Shown: positions 19,049 through 40,847, counted from the first letter of the stretch. The stretch is DNA of 64,000 bases from Candidatus Latescibacterota bacterium (GCA_022823725.1 JAJEHL010000039.1:7632-71631), one strand, 5' to 3'. Translations and numbers: made by a program. The notes: generated by a model from the sequence alone, not told the origin.

Positions 19049-19153
19049 ATGAACGCTTTTGCAACCTACTTCTGGTATTTTTGGCGTCGATTTGACGGCC
19101 GATATTATTATTATCGCCGCCTGTCCAAGAGTGTGGTTTGTCCTGCGTTTTAA
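19049..19153 (+). CDS. candidate trp-operon leader peptide, 34 aa, aromatic-rich (MNAFATYFWYFWRRFDGRYYYYRRLSKSVVCPAF)
   Basis: An ATG with RBS AAGGAA 9 nt upstream opens a 34-codon ORF containing 2 Trp, 4 consecutive Tyr (TAT x4) and 4 Phe codons. It lies about 25 nt upstream of a terminator hairpin and about 110 nt upstream of trpE. Confidence 0.5.
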   Translation: MNAFATYFWYFWRRFDGRYYYYRRLSKSVVCPAF

Positions 19154-19178
19154 GTGTGATGTAAGTGAATGAAAGTAC

Positions 19179-19215
19179 GAGGTCGTGGGCAAACTGCTCA
19201 CGACCTTTTTTTTTC
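19179..19215 (+). terminator. intrinsic terminator / attenuator hairpin (GAGGTCGTG-loop-CACGACCT followed by T9)
   Basis: The inverted repeat aggtcgtg...cacgacct with an 11-nt loop is followed by ttttttttt. It lies between the leader peptide stop and the trpE RBS. Confidence 0.6.
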
Positions 19216-19262
19216 TGCCTTTCATCTGCGTCCATCTGCGGATTTGACTTAAGGATTTTTTA

Positions 19263-20738
19263 GTGATTCAACCCGATCTCAAAACTGTCGAGAAGCTGAG
19301 CGAAGGCTGTGGTCTCGTTCCCATCTCAAGAGAACTGCTCGCGGATACAGAGACGCCCGTTTCGGCTTATTTGAAAATTCGCGCAAAGTCGTCTCATGCG
19401 TTTTTATTTGAAAGCGTGGTGGGCGGCGAGCAGATTGGGCGGTATTCGTTTTTGGGCGTGGATCCGTTTTTGGTTTTTCGTTCGCGCGGAACAAAAATTT
19501 CGATTGAACAGGCGACAACGGGTGAGTTGAGAATATTTGATGGGGAGCCTGTTGAGGTATTGCGAGGGTTGTTAAAAAAATACCACTCGCAACACATGGA
19601 AGGGTTTCCTCGATTTACGGGCGGTGCTGTGGGCTACGTGAGTTATGATGCCGTGCGTTTGATTGAGCGCATCCCCGAGACGGTTGAAGACGATCTCGAT
19701 ATAGACGATATATTTTTCTCATTTTACGATTCGGTGCTGGCATTTGACAATGTGACGCACAAAGTGCATGTGATGGCCAATGTGCATACAGAGGGCGATT
19801 TGAAGGCGAATTACGCAGATGCAGTCAAACGAATTGATGGACTGATTGAGCTACTGGCGCAACCTGCGGATACATCCTTAAAGCCAGGGACGAGTTCGTG
19901 CGCGGTGACCTCAAATACGAGCAAAGAAGCGTATATGGATGTGGTGGCGCGTTGCAGGGAGTACATCGTGGCGGGTGATATTTTTCAGGTGGTACCTTCG
20001 CAGCGTTTTGCAATGGATGTGACGGTTGATGCGCTGGATATTTATCGGGCGTTGCGGACGGTGAATCCGTCGCCTTATATGTTTCACGTCGATTTGATAG
20101 ACCATCAACTCGTGGGCGCGTCGCCCGAGTTGCTCGTCCGGGTAGAAGATGGGGTGGTGCAGGTGCGCCCCATTGCGGGAACGCGGTGGCGGGGTAAAAC
20201 AGAGGCAGAGGATCAGGTGCTGGCACAGGAGTTGTTGGCAGATGAAAAAGAATGTGCCGAGCATATTATGCTGGTGGATTTGGGACGCAATGATGTGGGG
20301 CGCGTCTCAAGGTTTGATACGGTGCGCGTGACCGAGCAGATGACGATTGAACGCTATTCGCATGTGATGCATATCGTTTCGAATGTGCGCGGTGAATTGC
20401 ACGAGGATGTCGATGCGCTGGACGCGCTTTTTGCCTGTTATCCGGCTGGTACGGTGTCGGGCGCGCCAAAAATTCGGGCAATGGAGATTATCGACGAGAT
20501 GGAGCCAACGCGTCGCGGGCCTTATGCCGGTGCGGTGGGTTATATCGATTTTGCGGGCAATATGGATACGTGTATTGCCATTCGCACGATGGTGATTAAG
20601 GAAGGCAAAGCGTATGTGCAGGCAGGGGGGGGCGTGGTGTTTGATTCAGAGCCGGGATACGAATATCAGGAGACCGTGAACAAAGCACGGGCACTGTTTC
20701 GGGCGGTAGAAATGGCTGAAGGAGGAGAGTTGTTGTGA
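19263..20738 (+). CDS. trpE: anthranilate synthase component I
   Basis: 491 aa with a chorismate-binding enzyme fold and conserved TrpE blocks (...[16 protein letters not shown]..., ...[12 protein letters not shown]..., ...[20 protein letters not shown]...). GTG start with AAGGA RBS. Confidence 0.9.
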
Positions 20739-21298
20739 TTCTCGTCATTGATAATTACGATTCTTTTACTTATAACCTCGTTCAATATCTCGGGGAACTG
20801 GGTGCGGATTTGGTGGTCTATCGCAATGATCAAATTTCACTTGAAGAGATTGATGATATGGCACCTGAGAAGATCGTGATTTCCCCGGGGCCATGCACGC
20901 CAAATGAGGCGGGAATTTCCGTGGCTCTGGTGCAGCATTTTGCGGGAAAGATTCCTATTTTAGGGGTTTGTCTGGGGCATCAGTCCATTGGGCAGGCATT
21001 TGGCGGGAAAATTGTGGGCGCGCCGACGATTATGCACGGGAAGGTGTCGGAGATTCATCATAGAGGGGAGTCTATTTTTGAGGGATTACCCGAGCCGTTT
21101 ATTGCTACGCGCTATCACTCTTTGATAGTGGAGAGAGATAGCCTTCCCGATTGTCTGGAGATTACGGCTGAGACCGATGATGGCGTGATTATGGGGTTGC
21201 GCCATCGAGATATGGCGGTGGATGGCGTACAGTTTCATCCCGAATCGATTTTGACAGGTGAAGGCAAGAATTTGTTGCAAAACTTTCTCGATACATGA
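20735..21298 (+). CDS. trpG: anthranilate synthase component II (glutamine amidotransferase)
   Basis: [23 protein letters not shown]...[11 protein letters not shown]...HPESIL is a class I GATase with the Cys-His-Glu triad. It overlaps trpE by 4 nt. Confidence 0.9.
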
Positions 21299-21314
21299 TT
21301 TGTGAGCTGAGGAG

Positions 21315-22334
21315 ATGAGTATGAACATACAAGAGGCAATTGCAAAAGTGATTGAAGGTGCAGATTTGAGCCGGGATGAGATGGCGGATGCGATGACTCA
21401 GATTATGTCGGGCGAGGCGACGGACGCGCAGATCGGCGCGTTTTTGATTGCGTTGCGCGTGAAGGGCGAGTGTGTTGATGAGATTGCCGGGGCCGCGTCT
21501 GTGATGCGCGAGAAGGCGACGCCGATTGTGACAAAGCACGATGTGATTGTCGATACCTGTGGCACGGGGGGCGATCATTCGGGCACGTTTAATATTTCGA
21601 CAACGGCGGCATTTGTCGCGGCTGGGGCGGGTTTGTGTGTGGCAAAACACGGCAATCGCGCGGCGACGAGCCAAAGTGGTAGCGCGGATGTGCTGGGTGC
21701 ATTGGGTGTGAATATTGAGGCATCGCCCGAGACGGTGAGCAGGTGTCTGGACGATGTGGGTATCGGGTTTTTGTTTGCCATTTCGTTGCATGGGGCGATG
21801 AAATACGCGATTGGGCCGCGTCGGGAAATTGGTGCGCGGACAATTTTCAATGCGCTGGGGCCACTGAGCAATCCGGCGGGTGCAACGCGGCAGGTGGTCG
21901 GTGTGTACAGCGCGGCATTGATCGAGACACTTGCAGGTGTTTTGGGGAATCTGGGGGCGGAGCGCGCGTTTGTCGTTCACGGTTCGGATGGTTTGGATGA
22001 GATGACGTTGACGGGACTGACGAGGGTGAGCGAATTGAAGAATGGCTCAGTTTCGACGTATGACGTATCACCCGGGGACTTTGGGTTGGCGCAGGCTTCA
22101 GCCGATGCGTTAAAAGGTGGAGATGCCGATTATAATGCAGAGATTACGCGGTCGATTTTGAATGGCGAAGAAGGTCCTCGGCGCGATATTGTGTTGTTGA
22201 ATGCGGCGGCGGCGATTGTGGCGGGCGATAAGGCGCGTGATCTAAATGAAGGCGTGCAGGTCGCGGCTGAAGTGATTGATTCGGGTAAGGCGTTGGAGAA
22301 GTTGGAGGGGTTGGTCGCGGCGAGTCGGGAATGA
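21315..22334 (+). CDS. trpD: anthranilate phosphoribosyltransferase
   Basis: ...DTCGTGGDHSGTFNISTTAAFVAAGAGLCVAKHGNRAATSQSGSADVLGALG... is the TrpD signature. Confidence 0.9.
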   Translation: MSMNIQEAIAKVIEGADLSRDEMADAMTQIMSGEATDAQIGAFLIALRVKGECVDEIAGAASVMREKATPIVTKHDVIVDTCGTGGDHSGTFNISTTAAFVAAGAGLCVAKHGNRAATSQSGSADVLGALGVNIEASPETVSRCLDDVGIGFLFAISLHGAMKYAIGPRREIGARTIFNALGPLSNPAGATRQVVGVYSAALIETLAGVLGNLGAERAFVVHGSDGLDEMTLTGLTRVSELKNGSVSTYDVSPGDFGLAQASADALKGGDADYNAEITRSILNGEEGPRRDIVLLNAAAAIVAGDKARDLNEGVQVAAEVIDSGKALEKLEGLVAASRE

Positions 22335-22357: not shown

Positions 22358-23422
22358 ATGTCTCTTTCGGTAGGTGTTGCTGGTTTGCGATTTGGCATGT
22401 CCTGGGCGCAGGTGTTTGATGCGTATGCCGAGACTGAGTTGGTCGCTGTTTGTGATGTTCAGGAGGAGAGCCTTAGCCAGGCAAAAGAGCGGTTGGGTGT
22501 CGATGCCTGTTATACAGCTTTTGACGATCTGGTCGCTGATGAACGGATTGATGCGGTGGCTATTTTTACTCCCGCACCGCTTCATGCAGAACAGGTGATT
22601 CGAGCGATTCGGGCCGGTAAGCACGTTTTGTGTGCTGTCCCCGCTGCGCTGACTATGGATGAGGCAAAGGCATTGGTCGAGGCCGTTTCAAATAGTGACC
22701 GCATTTATATGATGGCTGAGAATTGGGTCTATGAACCCAGTGTGGTGCGTGCGAAGTCGCTTTATGAAGCGCAAAAATTGGGGCGTATTTACTATGCCGA
22801 GGCCGAGTATATTCACGGTCTAAAAGCGTTGAGACGACATCCCGATGGGCGTCCTACCTGGCGGAATAGTTTGCAACCCCTTCTTTATCCGACACATGGG
22901 ACGTCGCCGTATTTGAATATGACGGGCGATCGTTTGGTTGAGGTCATGGCTGTTTCGGCATCAGGGCGAGATGAATTTTTAGGGGGGTATGAAGCAGATT
23001 GGGTGCAGACGGCTTTGTTCCGAACGGAAGCAGGCGCGGTGTTCAGGTTGACCAATTCGTTTCAGAATGTGCATGGGATGAGCCATTTCTTGAGCTTTTA
23101 TGGCGATGAGGGGTCTTTTGAGACGGGGCGATTTCGCGAAGCAAGAACGGTGTGTTATTATTCGGTGGGAAATAAAGAGCAGGTGACGCGCGAAGAATGC
23201 CACCACCCCGAATTATCCCAGTTTTCGGACGCACTCGGTGCAGGGCATGGCAAAACGAGTATGCTCATTGTTCTGGATTTTGTGCGGGCGATTGTGAATG
23301 GGTCGCCATCGCCGATAGATTTGATGCAGGCGCTGGATATGACACTGCCCGGTATTGCGGGATTGCAGGCGGTGCGCGAAAATGGATGGGTGTCTGTTCC
23401 CGATCCGCGGTCTTGGCTTTAG
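22358..23422 (+). CDS. Gfo/Idh/MocA-family NAD(P)-dependent oxidoreductase
   Basis: The N-terminal Rossmann region (LSVGVAGLRFGMSWAQVF...VAVCDVQEESLSQAKERLG...) and ...AIRAGKHVLCAVP... are typical of Gfo/Idh/MocA. It is inserted between trpD and trpC. Confidence 0.75.
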   Translation: MSLSVGVAGLRFGMSWAQVFDAYAETELVAVCDVQEESLSQAKERLGVDACYTAFDDLVADERIDAVAIFTPAPLHAEQVIRAIRAGKHVLCAVPAALTMDEAKALVEAVSNSDRIYMMAENWVYEPSVVRAKSLYEAQKLGRIYYAEAEYIHGLKALRRHPDGRPTWRNSLQPLLYPTHGTSPYLNMTGDRLVEVMAVSASGRDEFLGGYEADWVQTALFRTEAGAVFRLTNSFQNVHGMSHFLSFYGDEGSFETGRFREARTVCYYSVGNKEQVTREECHHPELSQFSDALGAGHGKTSMLIVLDFVRAIVNGSPSPIDLMQALDMTLPGIAGLQAVRENGWVSVPDPRSWL

Positions 23423-23447: not shown

Positions 23448-24242
23448 ATGGCCGGTAATATTCTCGACAAAATTGTGGCGTATAAACGCGAGTTTCTCGC
23501 CAGGTGTATGGCGCAGATGCCGTTTGAAGAGATGGCGCGATTGGCAGAAGATGCGCGAGAACCGCCTTCATTTTTTGATGGGCTGATAGATGGGGACGAT
23601 ATTGCTGTGATCGCCGAGGTCAAAAAGGCATCGCCGTCTAAGGGCGTGATCCGCGGGGATTTTGATGCGGTGGATATTGCGAAGGTTTATGTGGAAAATG
23701 GGGCTTCGGCGCTTTCGGTATTGACGGATGAGAAATTTTTTCAGGGGTCGGCAGATTATTTGACTCAGATTTCAACCGTTGTTGATCGGCCCATTTTGCG
23801 CAAGGATTTTACTATTGATCCCTATCAAATTTATGAAGCGCGCGCGATTGGAGCTTCGGCTGTGTTGTTGATTGTGTCGATTTTGACGCCTGGAGAATTG
23901 TCCTCATTTATAGCGACGAGTCGGGCATTGGGGCTGGATGCGCTGGTAGAGGTACACGAGAGAGAGGAACTGATGGTCGCGCTCGATGCGGGTGCGGAGA
24001 TTGTGGGGATTAACAATCGGAATTTGAAAACTTTTGATACGTCTCTGGATACGACTTATGGGTTGATAGATCACATCCCTGATGACGTGTTGACGGTGAG
24101 TGAGAGCGGTATTTATACGCGCGAGGATGTTGTCGCGCTTCGAGATGCGGGTGCAGATGCCGTGCTGGTGGGCGAGAGTTTGATGCGCGAATCGGATATT
24201 GCCGCCAAGTTGCAGGAGCTGATGGGATATGGTGCGAGCTAA
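23448..24242 (+). CDS. trpC: indole-3-glycerol phosphate synthase
   Basis: ...IAEVKKASPSKGVIRGDFDAVDIAKVY...GASALSVLTDEKFFQGS... is the IGPS signature. Confidence 0.9.
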   Translation: MAGNILDKIVAYKREFLARCMAQMPFEEMARLAEDAREPPSFFDGLIDGDDIAVIAEVKKASPSKGVIRGDFDAVDIAKVYVENGASALSVLTDEKFFQGSADYLTQISTVVDRPILRKDFTIDPYQIYEARAIGASAVLLIVSILTPGELSSFIATSRALGLDALVEVHEREELMVALDAGAEIVGINNRNLKTFDTSLDTTYGLIDHIPDDVLTVSESGIYTREDVVALRDAGADAVLVGESLMRESDIAAKLQELMGYGAS

Positions 24243-24837
24243 AATTTGCGGTGTTACAAATCGGGATGATGCGCTGTGCGCGATTGATAATGGCGCAGAT
24301 GCTCTGGGGTTTAATTTTTACGAGAAGAGTCTTCGCTATATCGCACCCGAGAAAGCTGGAGAAATTGTTTTTGATTTGCCGCCGTTTGTGACGCCCGTAG
24401 GGATATTCGTGAATGCATCGGAGCGAGAAATTGATATTGCCGTGAAGTTGGCGGGGCTGCGGGCGATTCAATTGCACGGGGATGAACCTCCCGAAGCATG
24501 TCTGAGGCATGCGGTTCCTGTGATTCGCGCGCTTCGCGTGGGACGCGATTTTGATGTGCATACCATGGGATCGTATCTGGTCAATACCTTCTTATTGGAT
24601 GCAGAGAAAGCGGGGTCTTACGGCGGTACGGGAGAGACATTTGACTGGACAAAGGCGATGGAAGCAAAAAGGTATGGGCGCATTATTCTTGCCGGTGGTT
24701 TAAATCCGGATAATGTTCAGGAGGCGATTGAGCAAGTTGGCCCCTATGCGGTGGATACGAGTAGTGGTGTGGAAGCCGAGCCAGGGAAGAAGGATCACAA
24801 AAAAGTACGAGATTTTTTGGCGCGTGTAAAGGCGTAA
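24229..24837 (+). CDS. trpF: phosphoribosylanthranilate isomerase
   Basis: MVRAKICGVTNRDDALCAIDNGADALGFNFYEKSLRYI... is the PRAI fold. It overlaps trpC by 14 nt. Confidence 0.88.
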   Translation: MVRAKICGVTNRDDALCAIDNGADALGFNFYEKSLRYIAPEKAGEIVFDLPPFVTPVGIFVNASEREIDIAVKLAGLRAIQLHGDEPPEACLRHAVPVIRALRVGRDFDVHTMGSYLVNTFLLDAEKAGSYGGTGETFDWTKAMEAKRYGRIILAGGLNPDNVQEAIEQVGPYAVDTSSGVEAEPGKKDHKKVRDFLARVKA

Positions 24838-24853: not shown

Positions 24854-26116
24854 GTGGATGTATTAGACGATTTGGCATTTCGTGGCTATATTTTTCAGAT
24901 GACAGATGAAGATAAGCTCCGCAGGCGTTTGGCAGAGGGACGGATGACACTGTATTGCGGATTTGACCCCACTGCCGATAGTCTGCATGCGGGCAGCCTG
25001 GTTCCCCTTATGGGATTGCGTCGCTTTCAAGATGCGGGGCACAAGCCCATTGCACTTGTGGGCGGGGGCACGGGGTTGATTGGCGATCCGAGTGGGAAAG
25101 CAGAAGAGCGACAGTTGAATTCACTGGAGGTGGTGCAGGCATATACAGAGCGTCAGCGCGCGCAATTGGAAAAGTATCTGGATTTTGAGACCGGGCACAA
25201 TCAGGCTCTGATGGTGAGCAATTATACCTGGCTTTCAGAGTTGCGTACGATTGAATTTTTACGCGATGTGGGCAAACACTTTTCAATGGGGTATATGCTG
25301 GGCAAAGAGTCGGTGTCGTCGCGTCTTTCGACCGGGATTTCGTTTACCGAATTTAGTTATATGGTTTTGCAGGCTTATGACTTTATGGAGTTGAATCGGG
25401 AGTATGGTTGTGAGCTTCAGATCGGAGGTAGCGATCAGTGGGGCAATATTACGGCAGGGATAGAGTTGTGTCGGCGCATGCTCAATAAGACTGTCTATGG
25501 GTTGACTTTTCCGTTGTTGGAAAAGTCTGATGGGACAAAGTTTGGCAAGACAGAGACGGGAACGTTATGGCTCGATCCCGAAAAGACATCGCCCTATCAA
25601 TTTTATCAGTTTTGGGTGAATGCAGCAGATCGCGATGTGGTGAAATTTTTAAAGTTGTTCACTTTTTTGAGCCGCGAACGCATAGAGGAGTTGGAACGAG
25701 AGGTGGAGGCACGGCCCGAGAAGCGCGAGGCGCAGCGCGTGCTGGCCGAAGAGGTGACGACTTTTATCCACGGTGTGGCCGCAAAGAATCGCGCCGTGCA
25801 TATTTCCGAGGCGTTGTTTTATGGCAATTTGCAGGATTTGAATGAACAGGAGGTCGCAGAGGGATTTAGCGATGTGCCATCTTACGCGCTCAATGGTGGC
25901 GATGAAGTGGGGTTGATCGATTTGCTCGTGGATGCACAAATTTCATCGTCCAGACGACAGGCGCGCGAAGATATCAGGACCGGTGCCATTTATATTAATG
26001 GTCAAAGGTGTACAGATATGGGCCATATTTTAGAGCCATCTGAAAGACTGGCTGGAAAATATCTGGTGATGCGCCGCGGTAAACGCCGCTACTTTTTGGT
26101 GAGTTGGTCGGTGTGA
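24854..26116 (+). CDS. tyrS: tyrosyl-tRNA synthetase
   Basis: The HIGH-type region ...LYCGFDPTADSLHAGSLVPLMGL... and the KMSKS-type KFGKTETG are present, with a C-terminal S4-like domain. GTG start. Confidence 0.88.
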   Translation: MDVLDDLAFRGYIFQMTDEDKLRRRLAEGRMTLYCGFDPTADSLHAGSLVPLMGLRRFQDAGHKPIALVGGGTGLIGDPSGKAEERQLNSLEVVQAYTERQRAQLEKYLDFETGHNQALMVSNYTWLSELRTIEFLRDVGKHFSMGYMLGKESVSSRLSTGISFTEFSYMVLQAYDFMELNREYGCELQIGGSDQWGNITAGIELCRRMLNKTVYGLTFPLLEKSDGTKFGKTETGTLWLDPEKTSPYQFYQFWVNAADRDVVKFLKLFTFLSRERIEELEREVEARPEKREAQRVLAEEVTTFIHGVAAKNRAVHISEALFYGNLQDLNEQEVAEGFSDVPSYALNGGDEVGLIDLLVDAQISSSRRQAREDIRTGAIYINGQRCTDMGHILEPSERLAGKYLVMRRGKRRYFLVSWSV

Positions 26117-26174: not shown

Positions 26175-27152
26175 ATGAAAGCACCCTGGATTACCTACCG
26201 CCCGGAACTCAAGGTACTCGATTGTACGATCCGAGACGGCGGTTTGATGAATGACCATCATTTTGATGATGATTTTGTGAAAGCCGTGTATGAAACATGT
26301 GTCGCGGCGGGTGTTGACTATATGGAAATTGGGTACCGAAACTCCAAGGAGATGTTCCCCAAAGAAGATTTTGGTGCATTCCGCCACAGCGATGAAGAGG
26401 ATATTCGCAAAATTACCGGGGATCACGATCCCGAAGCAACGGGGATGAAACTCGCTATTATGGCCGATGCTGGCAAGAGCGATTGGGCCAAAGATATTTT
26501 GCCATCCGGCGAGAGCGTGGTCGATATGGTGCGCGTGGCGTGTTACGTCGATCAGATTCCCGAGACCGTTGAAATGTTGCTCGATGCCCATGAAAAGGGA
26601 TATGAAACGAGTTGTAATATTATGGCGATTTCGACTGTGCAAGATGTCGAGATTGATCAGGCATTAGAAGTGTTGATGCAAACTCCTGTGGGTACGATTT
26701 GCGTTGTGGATAGTTTCGGCGCCCTGTACCGCGAGCAGGTTGATATGCTTGTGCGAAAATACATGGACGCGACCAAAGGCTCGGGCAAAGAGGTGGGCAT
26801 TCACGCGCACAACAATCAGCAACTGGCATTTGCCAATACCATTGAGGCCATTATTCTGGGGGCCAACCGAATCGATGCCACTGTGGATGGATTGGGTCGC
26901 GGTGCGGGCAATTGTCCCATGGAATTGTTGCTCGGTTTTTTGCGGAATCCCAAGTTTAAGATCCGCCCTGTCTATAAGTTGCTGGAAGAGCATTTTGTCA
27001 AGTTGCGCCGCGAAATGGCGTGGGGGCCTCTGGTGCCCTATAACATCACGGGCCAGCACAACCAGCATCCCCGCGAGGCTATGGCATTGCTCGATGGTGA
27101 TGACCGCGAGCAGTATCTGGCGTTTTACGACCGCGTGGTTGGAGATGTTTAA
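26175..27152 (+). CDS. DRE-TIM metallolyase, DmpG/BphI-like (4-hydroxy-2-oxovalerate aldolase family) without adjacent DmpF-type dehydrogenase
   Basis: ...[12 protein letters not shown]..., ...[10 protein letters not shown]..., ...[45 protein letters not shown]... match the metal-binding DRE-TIM motifs of DmpG-like aldolases. It lies between tyrS and trpB. Confidence 0.65.
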
Positions 27153-27165
27153 GGGGATATACAAT

Positions 27166-33258: not shown

Positions 33259-34136
33259 TGAGTATTCGCGCGACAAGTCAGGTGCTGGGCGTTATTGGTG
33301 ACCCGGTGGCTCATTCGTTTTCTCCCGATATGCACAATGCGGCAATTGCCGCATTAGATGTGGATTATTGTTATGTGGCTTTTCATGTGTTGCCCGACCG
33401 CGTGGGCGAGGCACTGAAAGGGTTGCGCGGGTTGAATATTCGCGGATTAAATGTGACTATTCCGCACAAGCTGGCGGTGATGGAACACCTGGACCGCATT
33501 TCAGAAGAAGCGCTGGCTGTGGGTGCGGTTAATACTATTTCGCGCGAAGAAGATGAGTTGGTCGGATACAATACGGATGTCTATGGCGTCTTGAGGGCAT
33601 TGCGCGATATTGCGGAGATTGAGACATTTCCCGCGCATTGCGTGGTGCTCGGTGCCGGTGGAGCTGCCCGCGCTGTGACGTACGCGCTGGGGACACAAGA
33701 CGGTGTGCAGCGGGTGACGATTTTAAATCGCACGGTCAAGCGCGCTGAGGCGCTGGCAGTGGATATGGAAAAAATAACAGGTACAAAAATGGATGTGGGC
33801 GCGCTGGATGCCGATGTGCAATGCAGGGCGTTTACCGATGCGGGCGTGGTTGTGAATACCACTTCGCTGGGGATGTATCCCGAGGTCAATTCCTCGCCCC
33901 TTGCCGATGTGAGTGCTGTCCATTCAGATTTGGTGCTCTACGATACGGTGTTCAATCCGCTGGAAACACAGTTGATGCGCGCGTTTCAGTCGGTTGGCGC
34001 ACTGGCCTTTGGCGGGCTGGATATGCTGGTTTTTCAAGGGGCGCGTTCTTTTGCGATCTGGACGGGTGTTGAGCCACCGACTGATGTGATGAAAAATGTT
34101 GTTGTCAAACGGGTCGGCACAAAAAATGAGAAGTGA
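33258..34136 (+). CDS. aroE: shikimate dehydrogenase
   Basis: ...VLGVIGDPVAHSFSPDMHNAA..., ...NVTIPHKLAVMEHLD..., ...VLGAGGAARAV... are AroE blocks. Confidence 0.88.
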   Translation: MSIRATSQVLGVIGDPVAHSFSPDMHNAAIAALDVDYCYVAFHVLPDRVGEALKGLRGLNIRGLNVTIPHKLAVMEHLDRISEEALAVGAVNTISREEDELVGYNTDVYGVLRALRDIAEIETFPAHCVVLGAGGAARAVTYALGTQDGVQRVTILNRTVKRAEALAVDMEKITGTKMDVGALDADVQCRAFTDAGVVVNTTSLGMYPEVNSSPLADVSAVHSDLVLYDTVFNPLETQLMRAFQSVGALAFGGLDMLVFQGARSFAIWTGVEPPTDVMKNVVVKRVGTKNEK

Positions 34137-34884
34137 GCACAGGCATAACCCACGACCGACAGATATCGCGCACGATGTGTTGCTCAAACCAGAAGCCAAG
34201 CGCGCTTTTGTGCGACAGATGTTTGACGGGATTGCCCGCAGATACGATTTGCTCAATCACCTGTTGAGCATGGGCGTTGATATTGTTTGGCGAAAAAAGA
34301 CTATTGACCGATTGCGACCCGGGCCGAACTGGCGCGTCTTAGATCTGGCTACGGGCACGGGCGATTTGGGGTTTGAATGCGGCAAGCGCGCTGGCGATAT
34401 TCAGGTGATTGGTGTCGATCCTTCGGTGCCGATGTTGCGCGAGGGCGCAAAAAAAAATGAGTCGCGAGCAAATCCGGTCGCGTTTTTGTGTGGTGATGGG
34501 GAGTGTCTCCCTTTTGGAGAAGGGACATTTGACGGCGTGACAATCGGATTTGGCATTCGCAATGTGGCCGGGTTGGAAACGGCCCTGAGCGAGATGTGCC
34601 GCGTGCTCAAGGTGGGTGGGCGCGTGGCTGTGCTGGAGTTTTCAAGGCCGCGAGCTCCTGTGTTCCGCGGCCTTTACAATTTTTATTTTCAGCGTATTTT
34701 GCCTCGTATTGGACATATGGTCTCCCGCGATCCGAATGCCTATCGATATTTGTATGAATCTGTGATGCTTTTTCCCGAAGGTGATGCTTTTTGCCAGCGA
34801 TTGTCCGATGCGGGGTTTGTCGATATACAGACAGTTCGGTTGAGCTTTGGGATTGCAACCATTTATCTGGCTTCGAAATCGTAA
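34126..34884 (+). CDS. ubiE: demethylmenaquinone/ubiquinone biosynthesis C-methyltransferase
   Basis: ...VRQMFDGIARRYDLLNHLLSMGVDIVWRKK...VLDLATGTGDL... is the UbiE/MenG signature. The start at 34126 overlaps aroE by 11 nt; the alternative start is 34096. Confidence 0.8.
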   Translation: MRSEHRHNPRPTDIAHDVLLKPEAKRAFVRQMFDGIARRYDLLNHLLSMGVDIVWRKKTIDRLRPGPNWRVLDLATGTGDLGFECGKRAGDIQVIGVDPSVPMLREGAKKNESRANPVAFLCGDGECLPFGEGTFDGVTIGFGIRNVAGLETALSEMCRVLKVGGRVAVLEFSRPRAPVFRGLYNFYFQRILPRIGHMVSRDPNAYRYLYESVMLFPEGDAFCQRLSDAGFVDIQTVRLSFGIATIYLASKS

Positions 34885-34885
34885 T

Positions 34886-35350
34886 ATGTCTTTGACGCTC
34901 ATACAAATCGTGTTGATTCTCGCTCCCATTTTATTGGGCGCGTCTATTGTGGCCTATTGGCGATTGCGGCGTCATGTGTCCAATGCACAAGAGCCTGTGG
35001 TGGTTTTTTTGCAGAAGCGATGGGATGTGTTTTTGATAGTGATGGGGGGTATTGTGCTGTTTCGGGGAGCTGCGATCTCAGATGGCGTGGGATTTGTGCC
35101 GCAATTATTCGGTTTTTTGCTTTCTCTCGAATTTTTTTATATCGCGTATGCTACTATTCGCGTAACTATGAGTGAGCGCGGATTGCTGATGGGTATGCGC
35201 TATATGCCCTGGCAGCGTTTTTCGAGATATGTGTGGCGTACAGAGCGCGATTTGGAACTCATTTCTCAACGAAAAAACTATCGATTTCGCGTACCCGCGC
35301 AGATGAAGGTCGATGTACAGAAAATTTTGGATTTGGATATTTTGAAATAA
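34886..35350 (+). CDS. hypothetical membrane protein (2-3 TM) of unknown function
   Basis: MSLTLIQIVLILAPILLGASIVAYW... and ...VFLIVMGGIVLF... are hydrophobic helices. The function is not recognised. Confidence 0.4.
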   Translation: MSLTLIQIVLILAPILLGASIVAYWRLRRHVSNAQEPVVVFLQKRWDVFLIVMGGIVLFRGAAISDGVGFVPQLFGFLLSLEFFYIAYATIRVTMSERGLLMGMRYMPWQRFSRYVWRTERDLELISQRKNYRFRVPAQMKVDVQKILDLDILK

Positions 35351-35372: not shown

Positions 35373-37100
35373 TTGAGATATTGGAGGTATTTTGTGGTAA
35401 ATCCCTTTGTCGATGAAATTGTATTGCAGGTGTCAAAAGCAACTGAGATGTCTTGTGGCGATGTGAGGGCGCTGATCGAAACGCCGCCAAAACCCGAGAT
35501 GGGCGATTATGCATTGCCGTGTTTTACACTGGCTAAAATTTTTCGCAGAGCACCCCATCTTATTGCCGAAGATCTATGTGCACAAATTGCGACGGGTGAT
35601 CGAATTTCAGAGGTGCGTCCCGCGGGTCCGTATCTAAATTTTTTTGTGCCAAAGACCAATCTGGTGGAGGAGACACTCTCGGCGGTCCTCGAACAGGGCG
35701 CGGATTACGGGCGCGGAGATCACGGTGCTGGAAAGACGATTGTGATCGATTTTTCGCATCCCAATATTGCCAAACCATTTGGCATTCACCATCTGCGGTC
35801 AACGGTGATTGGCAATGCCCTGCGAAATATTTATCGGGCGTTGGGCTACGAAGTGATTGGAGTGAATCATCTGGGCGATTGGGGATCCCAGTTTGCGAAA
35901 TTGATTCTGGCGTGGAATTACTGGGGTGAGGGCGAATTGACAGCGGATATTACCATTCAGAAGTTGCTGGAACTCTATGTTCGCATTAACGAAGAAATTG
36001 AAGACAATCCCGAACTCGAACAAGAAGCCCGCGATTGGTTTCGCCGCCTCGAAGACGGCGATGAAGAAGCCGTGCGGATGTGGCAGGTATGCGTGGATGT
36101 GAGTTTTAAGGAGTTTGACCGCGTTTACGATATGCTGGGCATTGGGTTTGAGTCGATTGCTGGCGAGAGTTTTTATCAGGATAAGATGCCGGCGACATTG
36201 GATCGATTGCGGTCAAAGGGGTTGCTGACCGAGAGTGACGGCGCAACCATTGTGGATTTAGAAAAATGGGATATGCCGCCTTTGATCGCATTGCGCAGCG
36301 ACGATGCGACATTGTACGGTACACGCGATTTGGCCGCGCTGGAGTACCGGTGGGCAACATATCGCTTTGAAAAGTTGCTCTATGTGGTGGATGTGGCGCA
36401 ATCGCTGTATTTTCGCCAGTTGTTTCAGGTGTTGGAATTGATGGAATACGACTGGCGAGAAAAATGCGCGCATGTGCAATTTGGGCGGTTGCGTTTCAAA
36501 GATGGCAGTGGGGCCTCAACGCGCAGGGGCAATGTGGTTTTTTTAGAAGATGTGCTGAATCGAGCGATTGAGTTGACGCAAAAAATTATTGCCGATAAGA
36601 ATCCCGATTTGCCCAATAGTGATCAGATTGCACGAGATGTGGGTATTGGTGCGATTATTTTTGCGGATCTGGATTCCAAACGGACGCGCGATATTGTGTT
36701 TGATTGGGACGAGGTTCTAAATTTTAACGGCGAAACCGGTCCCTATCTGCAATATACTCACGCGCGATATTGCAGTGTGTTGCGACGTTATGACGGCACT
36801 TTGCCGCCGCGAGATATCGACTTCGCGTTGTTAAATGAGCCAGAAGCTATTGAGGTCGTCAAATGTCTTGCGCGTTTCCCCGGGCAGATTCAAAAGGCTG
36901 CGGACGAATACGAACCCTCTGCTGTGACAACGCTTATGATTGAATTGTGTACGGTCGCCAATCGATTTTACAATGCCCATCAGGTTATTTCTGAACAAGC
37001 GGATTTGACGGCTGCCCGCGTTGCACTGGTTTATGCGATTAAGACGGTGCTGGCGTCGGGCCTGACTTTGCTGGGGATGAAAGCGCCAGAACAGATGTGA
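35373..37100 (+). CDS. argS: arginyl-tRNA synthetase
   Basis: ...IVIDFSHPNIAKPFGIHHLRSTVIGNAL... is the HIGH-type region, followed by the C-terminal DALR anticodon-binding region. 575 aa. Confidence 0.88.
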   Translation: MRYWRYFVVNPFVDEIVLQVSKATEMSCGDVRALIETPPKPEMGDYALPCFTLAKIFRRAPHLIAEDLCAQIATGDRISEVRPAGPYLNFFVPKTNLVEETLSAVLEQGADYGRGDHGAGKTIVIDFSHPNIAKPFGIHHLRSTVIGNALRNIYRALGYEVIGVNHLGDWGSQFAKLILAWNYWGEGELTADITIQKLLELYVRINEEIEDNPELEQEARDWFRRLEDGDEEAVRMWQVCVDVSFKEFDRVYDMLGIGFESIAGESFYQDKMPATLDRLRSKGLLTESDGATIVDLEKWDMPPLIALRSDDATLYGTRDLAALEYRWATYRFEKLLYVVDVAQSLYFRQLFQVLELMEYDWREKCAHVQFGRLRFKDGSGASTRRGNVVFLEDVLNRAIELTQKIIADKNPDLPNSDQIARDVGIGAIIFADLDSKRTRDIVFDWDEVLNFNGETGPYLQYTHARYCSVLRRYDGTLPPRDIDFALLNEPEAIEVVKCLARFPGQIQKAADEYEPSAVTTLMIELCTVANRFYNAHQVISEQADLTAARVALVYAIKTVLASGLTLLGMKAPEQM

Positions 37101-37122: not shown

Positions 37123-37683
37123 GTGTTTAATCTACCTGATAAACCCATATTTCTCACTGGTTTTATGGCTACTGGGAAAACCAGAGTCGGGCGCATTTTG
37201 TCCGGATGGTTGAATCGGACCTTCGTTGATACAGATGAATTGGTGGTCGATGCCGCTGGGAAAACAATTCCGGAAATTTTTGAGGAATGTGGTGAAACCG
37301 CATTTCGCCAGTTGGAACACCAGGCGGTTATCGTGGCATCGAAGATGGGCAATGTGATCGTTTCTCTCGGTGGTGGTGCCATTACTCAGGAGCGGAATTG
37401 GGCGGTCATTCGCAAAACCGGCGTGTGTTTGTGTTTTCGCGCTTCTGTCGATACGATTTTTGAACGGGTCAGTCGCAAGCGCGATGAGAGACCCTTGCTG
37501 GCCGGGCTGGATGATGAGGGTTTGAAGAACAAAATTGAGGTGATGATGGCGGAGCGAGAGCCATTCTATGCGCGTGCAGATGCGTTTGCAACTTCGACAA
37601 ATGATCACACGCCCGAAGATACGGCAGAGACAGCATTGATTGAATTACAGAGTGTTTTTGAAACCACCGATAAACAGGGATGA
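37123..37683 (+). CDS. aroK: shikimate kinase
   Basis: ...IFLTGFMATGKTRVGRILS... is the P-loop, and ...VSLGGGAI... is a further match. Confidence 0.85.
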   Translation: MFNLPDKPIFLTGFMATGKTRVGRILSGWLNRTFVDTDELVVDAAGKTIPEIFEECGETAFRQLEHQAVIVASKMGNVIVSLGGGAITQERNWAVIRKTGVCLCFRASVDTIFERVSRKRDERPLLAGLDDEGLKNKIEVMMAEREPFYARADAFATSTNDHTPEDTAETALIELQSVFETTDKQG

Positions 37684-37700
37684 ACAATGAGGAGGTAAAA

Positions 37701-37910
37701 ATGTTGGAAATACACAAAAATTACGTTCTCGACGAAAACCAAAATCCAATCGCTGTGCAGATTCCGCTTGCGGAATTTGAACGCATCGAAGAGATCATTG
37801 AAAATTATGGTCTCGCACGCCTGATGGATGAAGTTCAAGATGAGCCGTGTCTCACAGGAGAAGAAGCATACCAACACTATCGGTCACTGAAAAATGAACT
37901 GGAGGGTTGA
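37701..37910 (+). CDS. type II antitoxin (Phd/YefM-like), cognate to downstream RelE/ParE toxin
   Basis: MLEIHKNYVLDENQNPIAVQIPLAEFERIEEIIENYGLARLMDE... resembles the Phd/YefM core (..AVVISAEEYERL..). GAGGAGG RBS upstream; the alternative in-frame start is 37680. Confidence 0.55.
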   Translation: MLEIHKNYVLDENQNPIAVQIPLAEFERIEEIIENYGLARLMDEVQDEPCLTGEEAYQHYRSLKNELEG

Positions 37911-38169
37911 TTATACGGAGAGATTTTTGAGGGAACTGGCCCGCCTCCCCAAACATATTCAAAAACGAGCAGAAGCCATTGTATTTCATCAATTTTCTTC
38001 AACTAACCCCTTTCAATCAGGATATATCGAAAGCATGAAGGGATACCGAGATAAATATAAGATCCGCATTGGTAATTATCGTATAGGGATCGCGGTTGAT
38101 CGAGAGAACAGGGTGATTATATGTCAGCGTATTGCTCATCGACGAGATATTTACAGAATATTTCCGTAG
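37894..38169 (+). CDS. type II toxin, RelE/ParE family
   Basis: ...YRDKYKIRIGNYRIGIAVDRENRVIICQRIAHRRDIYR is the RelE/ParE C-terminal signature. It overlaps the antitoxin by 17 nt. Confidence 0.7.
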   Translation: MNWRVDYTERFLRELARLPKHIQKRAEAIVFHQFSSTNPFQSGYIESMKGYRDKYKIRIGNYRIGIAVDRENRVIICQRIAHRRDIYRIFP

Positions 38170-38183
38170 TCAAGGATGGTGTG

Positions 38184-39287
38184 ATGGAAACGGTGACGGT
38201 TGATTTAGGTGATCGAAGTTATGATATTTTGATCGGTCGCGATTGCTTGCGCGGTTTGGGCGATTTGTATGCAGAGCGCGGTTTGGGAGAAACAGCGGTA
38301 ATTGTGACCAATCCGACGGTTGCCGCGCTCTATCTCAATACGGTTCGGCAGAGTCTCGCCCGCGCCGGTGTGAAGGTTGTGGTCGTAACTGTGCCCGATG
38401 GCGAGCAATACAAGACGCTTGAGACAGCGGGGCAGATCTATGGCGATTTGATCGCGGCGGGATTGGATCGCAAGTCCTGTGTCGTGACATTGGGCGGCGG
38501 TGTGGTTGGCGATATGGCTGGTTTTGTCGCTGCGACGTATTTGAGGGGTGTTGATTTTGTGCAGGTGCCCACGACGCTGGAAGCGCAGGTCGATGCGAGT
38601 GTGGGGGGAAAAACAGCTGTGGATCATGTTTTGGGAAAGAACATGATCGGTGCTTTTCACCAGCCAAAGTTGGTGTTGATCGATACGGCTACACTCGATA
38701 CTTTACCCAAACGCGAAGTGCGGGCGGGTATGGCCGAGGTGATCAAGCACGGGATTATACGCGATCCCGGTCTGGTGTCGTTTTTGGAAGATCACATTGA
38801 AGATGCTGCAAATTTAAGCCTGCCTTCGGATCAGATCAATTGGCTCGTTGCCCAACAGTGTCGCATCAAGGCGGGGGTTGTGGCTGCCGATGAAACCGAG
38901 AAAGGCGTACGCGAAATTTTAAATTACGGTCATACGGTGGGACACGCGCTGGAAGTGGTGACGCATTACGATTATTACAAACACGGTGAGGCGGTGTGTT
39001 TGGGGATGTTGGCCGCAGGGTATATCGCAGTGCAAAAGGGGATGTGGTCAGGGGATGCGTTCGAGCGGCAAAATGCTCTTATTGCCCGTCTGGGCATTCC
39101 CAAAGGCGTGCCTGATTTGAAGGTCGATGAGGTGTTGGAGCGGATGATGAGTGATAAGAAAGCGCGGGATGGTATCATCCGCTTTGTATTGCCCGAGCGG
39201 ATCGGAAAAATTGTGCCGCGAGATGATGTGGCACACGCAGAAATCGTTGCGGGGATTCAGTATATGCAGCATCAAGCGTTGGGATAG
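38184..39287 (+). CDS. aroB: 3-dehydroquinate synthase
   Basis: ...VVTLGGGVVGDMAGFVAATYLRGVDFVQVPTTLEAQVDASVGGKTAVDH... is the AroB signature. The start is set at ATG 38184 with AAGGA RBS. Confidence 0.88.
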   Translation: METVTVDLGDRSYDILIGRDCLRGLGDLYAERGLGETAVIVTNPTVAALYLNTVRQSLARAGVKVVVVTVPDGEQYKTLETAGQIYGDLIAAGLDRKSCVVTLGGGVVGDMAGFVAATYLRGVDFVQVPTTLEAQVDASVGGKTAVDHVLGKNMIGAFHQPKLVLIDTATLDTLPKREVRAGMAEVIKHGIIRDPGLVSFLEDHIEDAANLSLPSDQINWLVAQQCRIKAGVVAADETEKGVREILNYGHTVGHALEVVTHYDYYKHGEAVCLGMLAAGYIAVQKGMWSGDAFERQNALIARLGIPKGVPDLKVDEVLERMMSDKKARDGIIRFVLPERIGKIVPRDDVAHAEIVAGIQYMQHQALG

Positions 39288-39296
39288 GAGATTTTT

Positions 39297-40847
39297 ATGA
39301 GCGAAGATATTGGTCACGAATGCGGCGTGGCAGCCCTCTACTGGCTCGGGGAAAACGGCGATGCCGGCGATACCGATGATTTTGAAAATGTTGCAGCACT
39401 AATGCCGAGTATGTTGCTCGACCTTCAAAATAGGGGACAACTCGCCGCGGGATATTGCTCCTATCACCCCAACCGCGATCATCTTTTACGCACATTTAGA
39501 GATCTGGGCGGTGTTACCGAAGCCTTCCGCATGTCGCATCCCGGTAAATACCAGTCCATTATTGACCAATATGCAGGGATAGCTGCGATTGGACATACGC
39601 GCTATGCCACCAGTGGCGAAGACGATGTGCGCTACGCACAGCCCTTTGAACGGCAGCACGGGCGTATTTGGAAATGGTTTAGCCTGGCTTTTAACGGCAA
39701 TCTGGCCAATTACACGCTGTTGCGCGAACGCTTGTTGTCCAAGCAGGGGTATCACTTTACCCTAAATATCGATACCGAAATTATCATGCATACCCTGGCG
39801 TATCGATTGAAGGGTGAAAATGCGCCCGATCTGGCCGATGTGATGCGTTCGCTTTCCCGCGATTTTGACGGCGCTTATAATATCGCATTTCTCGATGCCT
39901 CGGGGCGTATGTTCGTCTCGCGCGATCCGCTCGGTTTGCATCCCATGTGCTGGGGGGTGAAAGGTCGTCTTTTTGCCGCAGCCAATGAATCAACGGCTCT
40001 TTCCAATCTCGGTTTTAGCGATATAAAATGGCTCAAACCCGGGGAAATGATAATTATTGAAGATGGTAATCTGCGCGTTGCGCACTATACGAAATCAAAA
40101 AAAACAGCCCGTTGTTTTTTTGAATGGGTCTATTTTTCTAATGTTGCCAGTGAAATTGACGGCCTCAGCGTTTATACTTCTCGCGCTGAGGCCGGTCGTA
40201 TTTTGGCTGAAAAAGAAAGCCAGAAAATTGACGATTCATGTGTGGTTGTGCCCGTTCCCGATACGGCCAAAGCTGCAGCCGATGCTTATGCTCATCACCT
40301 GAAAATGCCCTGTATGGAAGGTGTGATCCGCAATCGCTATGTGGGGCGCACTTTTATCCAGCCCAAAACCACCCGCTCGCAGAGTGCTAAAAGCAAGTAC
40401 ACGTCATTGGCCTCTGTTTTATCGGGCAAGCGCGTTTTTCTGGTAGAAGATTCTATTGTGCGCTCCCTCACGCTTCGCACCCTTGCCCATCAGGTACGCG
40501 ACAGCGGCGCGACCGAGGTACATGTGCGCGTGGCCTGTCCGCCCATTGTTGCGCCGTGTTTTTACGGGATTGATATGACGACCCTGGACGAACTCTTTGC
40601 CCCCGAACACGTTCCGGTGCGATACCGCGGTATGCCCAGCGTACAGACGCTAAAAAAAATGGCTATCGATCTCGATGTCGATAGCCTGAGATACCTCGAT
40701 GTTCCCGATCTGGGTTCCAGCATTGGGTGTGAAACAGATACCCTGTGTCTGGGATGTGTCACGGGCAAATATCCCACTACATGGGGCAATCGCCTCATGC
40801 GAGAGGCTCGCAAAAACCCCGAGACCGTTGGTCGCCTCTATGGGTGA
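39297..40847 (+). CDS. purF: amidophosphoribosyltransferase (glutamine PRPP amidotransferase), propeptide-containing type
   Basis: The propeptide MSEDIGHE is followed by the nucleophile Cys (CGVAAL). The C-terminal PRTase block ...FLVEDSIVRSLTLRTLAHQVRDSGATEVHVRVACPPIVAPCFYGIDM... is present. Confidence 0.8.
   Translation: MSEDIGHECGVAALYWLGENGDAGDTDDFENVAALMPSMLLDLQNRGQLAAGYCSYHPNRDHLLRTFRDLGGVTEAFRMSHPGKYQSIIDQYAGIAAIGHTRYATSGEDDVRYAQPFERQHGRIWKWFSLAFNGNLANYTLLRERLLSKQGYHFTLNIDTEIIMHTLAYRLKGENAPDLADVMRSLSRDFDGAYNIAFLDASGRMFVSRDPLGLHPMCWGVKGRLFAAANESTALSNLGFSDIKWLKPGEMIIIEDGNLRVAHYTKSKKTARCFFEWVYFSNVASEIDGLSVYTSRAEAGRILAEKESQKIDDSCVVVPVPDTAKAAADAYAHHLKMPCMEGVIRNRYVGRTFIQPKTTRSQSAKSKYTSLASVLSGKRVFLVEDSIVRSLTLRTLAHQVRDSGATEVHVRVACPPIVAPCFYGIDMTTLDELFAPEHVPVRYRGMPSVQTLKKMAIDLDVDSLRYLDVPDLGSSIGCETDTLCLGCVTGKYPTTWGNRLMREARKNPETVGRLYG

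Follow-up and report, generated by a model that had tools for sequence, protein, structure and literature searches.

The 64,000-nt stretch of DNA analysed here (hereafter the window) originates from a Candidatus Latescibacterota bacterium, a member of the phylum formerly called WS3. Its positions 19049-40847 hold a 21.8-kb run of 26 genes, all on the plus strand, which encode enzymes of tryptophan, tyrosine and shikimate biosynthesis together with two tRNA synthetases. Genes were identified by Pfam scans of the plus-strand open reading frames (ORFs), with NCBIfam/TIGR equivalog cut-offs for finer naming, and an independent gene caller applied to an identical Logan contig (L001) returned the same genes. 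Intergenic distances range from -17 to +58 nt, the single exception being a gap of 180 nt where a HigBA toxin-antitoxin pair is inserted, and 19 of the 25 junctions either overlap or measure 20 nt at most. The array is a supraoperon in the sense of Xie, Bonner and Jensen, since its trp genes adjoin the common-pathway aro genes and tyrA and run in the same direction. Overall, it is probably the lineage-typical aromatic amino-acid supraoperon of a Candidatus Latescibacterota clade, controlled by a leader attenuator, provided with slots for guest genes and carrying a degenerate homologue of aroA, here called aroA'.

The array opens with trpE (19263-20738), trpG (20735-21298) and trpD (21315-22334), whose ratios of non-synonymous to synonymous substitution rates (dN/dS) are 0.03-0.12 against the related loci L007-L009. 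These genes are followed by a GFO_IDH_MocA oxidoreductase gene (Gfo, 22358-23422), trpC (23448-24242), trpF (24229-24837), the tyrosyl-tRNA synthetase gene tyrS (24854-26116), an HMGL-like aldolase gene (26175-27152), trpB (about 27163-28371) and trpA (28368-29171). The gene caller placed the start of trpB at 27094, while its homologues align only from about residue 22-33. The central part comprises an AroQ-type chorismate mutase (CM_2, 29175-29459), a class I DAHP synthase (DAHP_synth_1, 29465-30490; 235.7 against TIGR00034 aroFGH, cut-off 173.2), the HigB-like toxin (Gp49, 91 bits, 30671-31003) and HigA-like antitoxin (HTH_37, 79 bits, 31019-31306), tyrA, encoding a prephenate dehydrogenase with a C-terminal ACT domain (31327-32436), aroA' (32447-33106), whose 219 amino acids (aa) match only the C-terminal part of EPSP_synthase, and the ORF of a 51-aa microprotein (33103-33258). 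The array then continues with the shikimate dehydrogenase gene aroE (33258-34136), the quinone methyltransferase gene ubiE/menG (34126-34884; 249.8 against TIGR01934, cut-off 158), a 154-aa ORF (34886-35350), the arginyl-tRNA synthetase gene argS (35394-37100), the shikimate kinase gene aroK (37123-37683), a RelB-like antitoxin (100 bits, 37680-37910) with a ParE/RelE-type toxin (ParE_toxin, 35 bits, 37894-38169), the 3-dehydroquinate synthase gene aroB (38184-39287) and purF (39297-40847). Strong purifying selection acts on DAHP synthase, aroB, aroE, aroK and all trp genes.

Every gene named in the first-pass annotation of this stretch is present, in the order and on the strand given there, and some of the names need correction. 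The pair described as Phd/RelE is indeed a toxin-antitoxin pair, composed of a RelB-like protein and a toxin of the ParE/RelE superfamily, not of Phd. Likewise, the so-called dockerin relic exists as a start-less fragment of 30 codons (30512-30601) with one calcium-binding loop (DLDGDGTIGFGDF...), situated within the 180-nt gap made by the HigBA insertion; its match to Dockerin_1 reaches only 12.8 bits (E=0.14) against a cut-off of 22.9, and that to EF-hand_1 (E=7e-4) is also under the cut-off.

Relatives of the array were found by scanning a genome collection with the aldolase and mapping the window proteins onto the hits by tblastn, and the set was then extended by look-ups based on aroA'. 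The core order trpE-G-D-C-F, tyrS, trpB-A, chorismate mutase, DAHP synthase, tyrA, aroA', microprotein, aroE, ubiE, argS, aroK, aroB recurs in 11 other assemblies, which belong to Candidatus Latescibacterota and related genomes of 5-8 Mb. The aldolase is 88-97% identical in the complete 5.0-5.7 Mb chromosomes L007-L010 and L012, and it is also found in L011, a metagenome-assembled genome labelled Gemmatimonadota. The array order is shared by the 5.4-Mb genome L002 (tblastn mapping), by L167/L168, whose aroA' is 78% identical, and by the 8-Mb genomes L169 and L170 (core proteins 53-84% identical to those of the window); for instance, argS and aroK keep their order in L002, L007-L009, L012 and L167-L170. 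The order is thus retained over deep divergence (TrpE 67-69% identical). Given the identical Logan contig and the 11 other assemblies, the array is neither an assembly artefact nor a chance arrangement. The first-pass annotation had presented it as unusually consolidated, adding that a gene order common in the clade would lower its novelty. Comparison with the closest genomes, which it had also suggested, shows that this order is the norm in the clade and not a peculiarity of one genome; therefore, the order as such is less novel than it appeared.

Four genes from outside the amino-acid pathway, namely tyrS, argS, ubiE and the microprotein gene, have a fixed position in every locus that covers it, tyrS standing between trpF and trpB throughout. 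Quinones derive from chorismate, which provides a metabolic link for ubiE. A metagenome scan for new array members, seeded with TyrS, delimits the clade: it returned 80 loci with distant TyrS (45-63% identity), none of them inside trp genes and none with a conserved trp/aro neighbourhood, the lone exception being one trpA match about 3.5 kb off on the opposite strand. Compared with these 80 loci, the embedding of tyrS among trp genes is restricted to the present clade. The 154-aa ORF, listed in the first-pass annotation as a membrane protein, occurs in L168 and L007-L009 as well as in the window, and L169 has a weak relative. Its dN/dS is 0.08-0.20, and neither this ORF nor the 51-aa ORF matches a significant Pfam family.

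The 293-nt gap upstream of trpE holds a promoter-like site, a leader ORF, a 13-bp hairpin and a run of nine T. The candidate promoter (18978-19005) is of the sigma-70 type, TTGACA-16 nt-TG-TATCTT, with 10 of 12 consensus matches and an extended -10 TG, and ranks second among the 20 sites in 20 kb. Since the total of promoter-like sites is at chance level, it is the position of this site, not its score, that argues for it; TTGAC occurs at the equivalent place in L010, L011 and L012. The leader ORF (19049-19153), preceded by AAGGA 10 nt 5' of its ATG, has 34 codons and encodes the peptide MNAFATYFWYFWRRFDGRYYYYRRLSKSVVCPAF. No fewer than 13 of these codons specify aromatic residues (2 Trp, 6 Tyr and 5 Phe), compared with 7.8% in the operon proteins (binomial P=7e-7). 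A regulatory leader at 19049 had already been proposed, and the ORF starts exactly there, with Trp, Tyr and Phe codons that suit an operon containing trp genes, tyrA and tyrS. Downstream lies an intrinsic terminator (19179-19214, hairpin 19179-19207) with a 13-bp stem including 7 G-C pairs, a 3-nt loop and a T9 tail; it ranks first of 22 sites and ends 48 nt upstream of trpE. Two more pairings are predicted. In minimum free energy folds, the Tyr-Phe-Trp codons at 19061-19075 pair with the 3' part of the leader (19126-19141), forming a 1:2 helix (19061-19141). In the candidate antiterminator (19136-19194), GUUUGUCC (19136-19143), which belongs to the last leader codons, pairs with GGGCAAAC (19187-19194) in the 5' arm and loop of the terminator.

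A homologous leader and terminator precede trpE in L007, L009, L010, L002, L011 and L012, making seven loci with the window. The terminator is present in all seven, and its core CGUGGGCA...GCUCACG is invariant. The leaders share the motif FWYFWRRFDGRYYY(Y)RR in L007, L009 and L010 and GFSWRGYFYRSYRWYYRE in L002, L011 and L012; these two subgroups diverge except in the aromatic runs and the last codons, and the aromatic enrichment is found across the leaders (P=7e-7 to 7e-3). When the free RNA is folded, the 1:2 helix and the terminator both form (z=-2.5). An equilibrium fold with a ribosome mask never removes the terminator (hairpin about -21 kcal/mol); therefore, in-silico folding was repeated with the masking ribosome on the aromatic run and the 3' arm of the terminator withheld, and under these conditions the antiterminator forms in 6 of 6 loci tested. 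In the L002/L011/L012 group it consists of UGCCCACG:CGUGGGCA, which differs in sequence and register from that of the window group. The leader alignment is unusable for covariation, given that the terminator core is invariant and the antiterminator register is shifted by about 3 nt between the subgroups. The leaders also contain 5-8 Arg codons (enrichment P=0.003-0.08); these codons also build the GC-rich stems, so that a link to argS is only a possibility. Other types of regulatory RNA were considered as well. A search of the 64 kb with Rfam at gathering threshold gave 0 matches to T-box or other known RNA elements, a permissive Rfam scan of 18800-19400 yielded only noise-level matches and no T-box at E up to 10, and a T-box could not fit into the 16 nt upstream of tyrS or the 43 nt upstream of argS.

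On sequence grounds, the anatomy of this leader is that of a classical ribosome-mediated attenuator, leader-peptide attenuation being a textbook mechanism, and we infer that attenuation takes place in vivo. Transcription would start at the sigma-70-like promoter about 70 nt upstream of the leader ORF. With scarce Trp-, Tyr- or Phe-tRNA, the ribosome would stall on the FWYFW or YYYY codons; the 5' arm of the terminator could then base-pair with the last leader codons (GUUUGUCC), which stay uncovered, and RNA polymerase would enter trpE. With ample charged tRNAs, the ribosome would reach the stop codon; segment 2 ends 8 nt before this codon, so a ribosome finishing the peptide would cover it, and the 13-bp/T9 terminator would form. 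Too little TyrRS activity would likewise make the ribosome stall and thereby increase the expression of tyrS, which is itself a gene of the array.

How far this control extends, and whether the leader is a switch for trpE at all, are the points on which other readings must be weighed. One of them takes the element 19049-19214 for a small protein or a small RNA with its own terminator, the trpE promoter lying in the following 48 nt. Indeed, attenuator-derived small RNAs and leader peptides with functions in trans are known from Sinorhizobium (PMC6614838, PMC7298713), the C-terminal VVCP of the leader is conserved, and there is a weak Rfam similarity to the terminator-bearing small RNA rli42 (E=0.038), which reflects the hairpin alone. 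However, the conserved C-terminal codons are exactly those which pair with the 5' arm of the terminator, the aromatic runs are kept while the rest of the peptide varies between subgroups, and the distance from the T-run to trpE, just 48 nt here, shrinks to about 12 nt in L009; this reading is therefore improbable. Several observations weigh against attenuation of the whole array. At equilibrium the antiterminator never matches the terminator in stability, and the model consequently depends on co-transcriptional kinetics, as E. coli trpL does. The leader shows no rare-codon signal, TAT and TTT being common Tyr and Phe codons, and the leader comparison lacks the deepest relatives, L169 and L170, whose loci begin inside the operon. 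Most of the close loci were reached through the aldolase search, which biases the sample to aldolase carriers, a bias partly corrected by the aroA'-based look-ups. Furthermore, 21.8 kb is very long for a single transcription unit, any shutdown of the operon would silence the essential tyrS and argS as well, barring internal promoters or basal read-through, toxin-antitoxin cassettes usually carry promoters of their own, and promoter-like and terminator-like sites occur within the array at chance frequency, which neither supports nor excludes internal signals. The array might be a mosaic of independent units packed together, the leader governing only trpE to trpF or trpA, and tyrS, the tyrA-aro block, argS and aroB-purF being served by internal promoters, including some borne by the toxin-antitoxin pairs. 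This would agree with the need to express essential synthetase genes when aromatic amino acids abound, with the 180-nt gap and HigBA cassette before tyrA and the RelB/ParE cassette before aroB, with the multi-kb insertions that split the array in L010, L168 and L169 while the downstream genes are still kept, and with the internal promoters of the B. subtilis supraoperon (cited in PMC1173090). On the other side, the 19 tight or overlapping junctions leave no space for a promoter and 5' untranslated region outside coding sequence, no intrinsic terminator stands out within the array, and the order has been kept over deep divergence. We regard the mosaic as a genuine possibility, though the less likely one, and favour a leader-attenuated supraoperon in which co-transcription beyond the first genes is suggested by the spacing.

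The gene that follows tyrA is aroA'. Against TIGR01356 aroA' scores 107 bits and the full-length form of L002 145.7, the cut-off being 287. Relative to the 430-447-aa homologues found at the same position in L002, L011 and L012, aroA' has lost residues 24-235 (about 212) in frame, between two PGD motifs, with the N-terminal strand kept. The boundaries of this deletion are identical in all short forms, which make up at least 15 protein clusters of 209-224 aa down to 74% identity. In L007-L009 aroA' is intact and 85-89% identical, with a dN/dS of 0.15-0.19 in three species comparisons. Its homology to 5-enolpyruvylshikimate-3-phosphate synthase (EPSP synthase, EPSPS) is supported by Pfam (95 bits) and Foldseek (E=1e-16 to EPSPS structures), and its AlphaFold (AF2) model is a compact domain (pLDDT, the predicted local confidence, 94.1; pTM, the predicted TM-score, 0.90) which superposes on one EPSPS lobe over about 200 residues at 2.4-2.6 Å (TMq about 0.8).

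The loss of EPSPS signatures is not confined to the short forms. In the full-length forms (L002, L169, L170, P0139 and relatives down to 41% identity) PGDKSISHR, GNSGT, RPM, SAQVK, RDHTE, LRVKExDR and GDHR are all replaced, and the family-specific motifs GxDDLEVL, DWKxRRxxDLLRRxN and GEMPDGLV are conserved instead; the short form shows the changes LIDEIP to FMQEVP, KVKETNR to RRGETDR and GDHR to GDAR. We take the lost motifs to have the catalytic and substrate-binding roles generally attributed to them in E. coli EPSPS. The assignment of aroA' as the EPSP synthase AroA was thus rejected, considering the score below the TIGR01356 cut-off, the single lobe of 219 aa and the replacement of the motifs in long and short members alike. 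Judging from these motifs, aroA' is not an EPSP synthase and is catalytically degenerate, and selection maintains it. The family is labelled 3-phosphoshikimate 1-carboxyvinyltransferase at JGI and hypothetical protein at NCBI. The order of events would therefore be that an EPSPS homologue located after tyrA first lost catalysis while still full length and was kept for another role, and that a sub-lineage then shed one whole lobe by a single in-frame deletion, with purifying selection persisting.

A microprotein of 46-51 aa always follows aroA' (window 33103-33258; L002:17242-17382; L169:11382-11522; L170:11348-11488; L168:10650-10811), and the two genes of the window share 4 nt, where the microprotein ORF begins over the aroA' stop. 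Its N-terminus is a hydrophobic, putatively transmembrane helix, after which comes GGVAFIRYTYNCSWKESFDIADQFV. Conservation exceeds that of any neighbour: across five lineages 22 of 46 positions do not vary, and dN/dS is 0.08-0.12. If aroA' and the microprotein act as a module, it could serve as a tether to the membrane or regulate enzymes of shikimate and quinone metabolism.

As the first-pass annotation had stated, aroC, a dehydroquinase, prephenate dehydratase and the N-terminal half of aroA are missing from the 64-kb window, in which neither Pfam scans of all sizeable ORFs nor tblastn detected any of them. Searches for the true aroA with the short and long forms of aroA' yielded members of the degenerate family along with fragments of canonical EPSPS that are unrelated. 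The strong purifying selection on DAHP synthase, aroB, aroE, aroK and the trp genes implies that a real EPSPS, chorismate synthase and dehydroquinase must exist elsewhere; the true aroA, aroC, aroQ/aroD and pheA thus presumably lie at other sites of the genome. A gene that can be called as aroA while having no catalytic motifs is a trap for automated metabolic reconstruction, and, barring the discovery of a second aroA, these genomes would receive erroneous pathway-completeness calls.

The remaining genes, namely the Gfo gene, the HMGL-like aldolase, HigBA and RelB/ParE, are guests in variable slots and not pathway enzymes, and purF is probably a guest too; all are co-oriented with the array. 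At the trpD/trpC junction, the Gfo gene occurs only in the window and L007-L009; it is absent from the array in L002, L011, L012, L169 and L170, and L010 has none at this junction, carrying instead a 27%-identical Gfo-like gene in an insertion between chorismate mutase and DAHP synthase. It reaches no NCBIfam equivalog cut-off and has a dN/dS of 0.14-0.18. The aldolase occupies the slot between tyrS and trpB in 7 of 7 loci of the window's subclade; the same slot is taken by N6_N4_Mtase and RE_MjaI genes in L169 and by a beta-lactamase-family gene in L170. The junction between DAHP synthase and tyrA contains HigBA in the window only. In L007 and L008 it is about 30 nt long; L009 has HicA/HicB-like genes there and L168, by sequence resemblance only, HicA/B-like remnants. 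Between aroK and aroB, the RelB/ParE pair of the window is matched by Phd-like and other small ORFs in L167/L168 and by five unrelated genes in L169. Both toxin-antitoxin pairs would be type II modules by their gene layout, with adjacent toxin and antitoxin domains that overlap or stand 15 nt apart, and their absence from those junctions in the closest relatives bears out the earlier view that they are foreign insertions. Finally, aroB-purF-permease is conserved in L167/L168, and purF is absent after aroB in L170.

The aldolase, previously described as DmpG-like, is indeed an aldolase gene, with scores below the cut-offs for DmpG-type enzymes (104.7 versus 286 for TIGR03217, 120.3 versus 229 for PRK08195) and all other NCBIfam cut-offs. 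A role as 4-hydroxy-2-oxovalerate aldolase was rejected on these scores, the presence of only the HMGL-like domain and the neighbourhood of tyrS and trpB. Its TIM-barrel catalytic domain (Pfam, 79.8 bits) resembles that of DmpG, but no DmpG communication domain was detected and no DmpF dehydrogenase gene is adjacent; the closest solved structure is 3dxi, an uncharacterised 'putative aldolase'. The protein is very widely conserved, with 58-98% identity across Planctomycetota, Verrucomicrobiota, Acidobacteriota, Myxococcota and others, and no conserved trp/aro neighbourhood was seen in 74 loci outside the clade, whose aldolases are 58-76% identical, only a few isolated weak or opposite-strand matches. 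In Candidatus Moanabacter (Verrucomicrobiota; L003/L004:8566-14151), a 77%-identical aldolase is surrounded by genes for an MR_MLE enolase-superfamily protein, an AP_endonuc_2 isomerase, a lactonase and an HpcH/HpaI aldolase, neighbours which hint at a sugar-acid role.

Cargo is also observed at other junctions. L008 carries a TumE toxin pair (7850-8568), the 122-aa partner of TumE having no significant Pfam family, and L009 a methyltransferase and HicA (9030-9953, 14380-14854). In L010 an AAA_15/DUF3226 pair and a 6-kb restriction-modification-like block are found (3922-5723, 13385-19266), and more cargo lies at L168:3163-7032 and L169:2976-4871 and 16625-21144, including, across species, Abi genes and a DDE transposase. 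Upstream of the array, L007 (2355-2845) and L009 (1468-1955) show overlapping 89-aa and 76-aa ORFs between an ABC ATPase gene and the trp leader, which have no Pfam match and a layout like that of a toxin-antitoxin module. The junctions between core genes thus seem to tolerate co-oriented guests that vary from species to species, and a long biosynthetic operon can act as a landing strip for toxin-antitoxin and defence cassettes with its order unharmed.

Three other interpretations of aroA' and the guest genes were weighed. The first-pass annotation considered the interspersed genes as candidates for pathway-linked functions, and the Gfo gene and the aldolase might be new aromatic enzymes replacing, for instance, dehydroquinase, EPSPS or chorismate synthase, three steps absent from the window. 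Neither gene is disrupted, purifying selection acts on the two (dN/dS 0.06-0.18), and the aldolase is retained throughout the window's subclade. However, the Gfo gene is confined to the genus and missing from five related arrays, L169 and L170 fill the aldolase slot with a restriction-modification pair and a beta-lactamase-like gene, respectively, and in other phyla the aldolase has no conserved trp/aro neighbours and stands among genes resembling those for sugar acids; we find an enzymatic role in the pathway very improbable. Even less can be said for aroA' as one piece of a split, active EPSP synthase with its other lobe encoded elsewhere. The part retained appears from the model to be a complete structural lobe, it keeps C-terminal motif residues (E and R in RRGETDR, D and R in GDAR) and the window shows no aroA, yet the full-length relatives that preceded the deletion had already lost PGDKSISHR, GNSGT, RPM, SAQ, RDHTE, KExDR and GDHR, three motifs are altered in the short form, and tblastn revealed no ORF resembling the N-terminal lobe in the window. 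Finally, we give almost no credence to the half aroA of the first-pass annotation as a relic, a decaying pseudogene left by a deletion. A gene that is about 212 residues shorter than its relatives, scores far under the aroA cut-off and has a dN 2-3x that of neighbouring genes may suggest decay; on the other hand, its frame is intact and its length constant over all clusters with the same deletion boundaries, selection acts on it in three species comparisons, its model is confident and compact, and its stop overlaps the start of the highly conserved microprotein gene. We thus retain the reading of aroA' as a selected member of a catalytically degenerate family, that is, a natural case in which a two-lobe enzyme became a pseudoenzyme and then a single lobe still under selection.

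Beyond the supraoperon itself, we tentatively put forward a bolder, joint proposal, which we consider rather doubtful as a whole: one leader may read the charging of three aromatic tRNAs, and perhaps of tRNA-Arg, and thereby gate the 26-gene unit, and at the same time aroA' and the microprotein could together constitute a novel module of EPSP synthase descent that has no catalytic function and has been reduced to one lobe in this lineage. If this holds true, shortage of a synthetase and shortage of an amino acid would feed back via one switch, tyrS and argS included.

The surroundings of the array are of a different nature. At its 3' end it meets a convergent amino-acid permease gene on the minus strand (40838-42925), fused to EIIA-2 (phosphotransferase system) and TrkA_C domains, which ends 10 nt inside purF and whose terminator-like hairpin (40686-40661, T8 tail) is likewise embedded in the coding part of purF. 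The GC skew is positive (0.08-0.38) over the plus-strand genes and about 0 or lower only across the minus-strand block at 40.8-44.2 kb; since its sign tracks the gene strand, the skew follows the coding strand. On the minus strand, 5112-13634 encodes secreted or surface proteins: a 1013-aa PD40/Peptidase_MA protein, a 996-aa FG-GAP protein with a type IX secretion sorting tail, a GSDH-like protein with a weak dockerin/EF-hand match, and PorV. The presence of PorV and Por_Secre_tail in the window is consistent with an FCB-group organism endowed with type IX secretion. On the other flank, 44211-60118 contains genes for a UxuA-like dehydratase, a DegT aminotransferase, an HpcH/HpaI aldolase, two PhyH dioxygenases, a sulfatase, an SSF symporter and a LarA-like protein; it is a neighbourhood for the use of sugars or sulfated glycans and has no relation to the aromatic array.

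Supraoperons joining trp and aro genes are known from Bacillus, Desulfovibrio vulgaris and Nostoc/Anabaena, and the tyrA>EPSPS linkage is ancient (PMC1173090). Like the aro-trp-hisC-tyrA-aroE supraoperon of B. subtilis and those of D. vulgaris and Nostoc/Anabaena, the Latescibacterota array unites on one strand a full trp set, aro genes, tyrA and an EPSPS gene, and it shares with them the tyrA>EPSPS adjacency as well as shuffling and insertions around a conserved core. Unlike them, it belongs to another phylum, has another order, embeds tyrS and argS, and includes ubiE and two small ORFs as core or near-core members. In addition, its regulation would rely on a leader-peptide attenuator instead of TRAP, its EPSPS slot is occupied by what appears to be a catalytically dead homologue, and pheA, aroC and a dehydroquinase gene are absent from it. 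It is also larger than the arrays described in PMC1173090 and embeds two aminoacyl-tRNA synthetase genes. For aroA' there is a partial precedent in Pseudomonas syringae, where a truncated supraoperonic aroF (EPSPS) domain coexists with a replacement copy elsewhere (PMC1173090). Thus, aroA' agrees with EPSP synthase in its fold and its position right after tyrA, but it comprises one lobe, has lost the motifs and acquired its own, and is under selection across genomes of 5-8 Mb.

Attenuators have also been described before synthetase genes, namely pheST (pheM) and Streptomyces trpS and leuS (PMC1262725). The present leader resembles those of E. coli trpL, pheL and pheM and of Streptomyces trpS/leuS (PMC1262725, PMC1183508) in being a short ORF with runs of regulatory codons, and it has in common with classical attenuators the exclusive 1:2, 2:3 and 3:4 pairings, the terminator just before the first gene and the precedent of synthetase genes. 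It differs in mixing Trp (2), Tyr (6) and Phe (5) codons, whereas classical leaders are devoted to one amino acid; moreover, the controlled unit may include the synthetase genes for Tyr and Arg, and the host is a member of an uncultured FCB-group phylum. The literature search found nothing relevant on the shikimate pathway of Latescibacteria, on an EPSP synthase pseudoenzyme or on tyrS within trp operons. Leader-peptide attenuation with mixed aromatic codons and embedded synthetase genes would thus be extended to a lineage for which we found no report, and the locus offers a compact, testable picture of the organisation and probable regulation of aromatic amino-acid synthesis in an uncultured phylum. 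Compared with known systems, what is new is the combination: a lineage for which no report was found, an array of this size with two aminoacyl-tRNA synthetase genes, a mixed aromatic leader, swappable slots and a pseudoenzyme derived from EPSPS.

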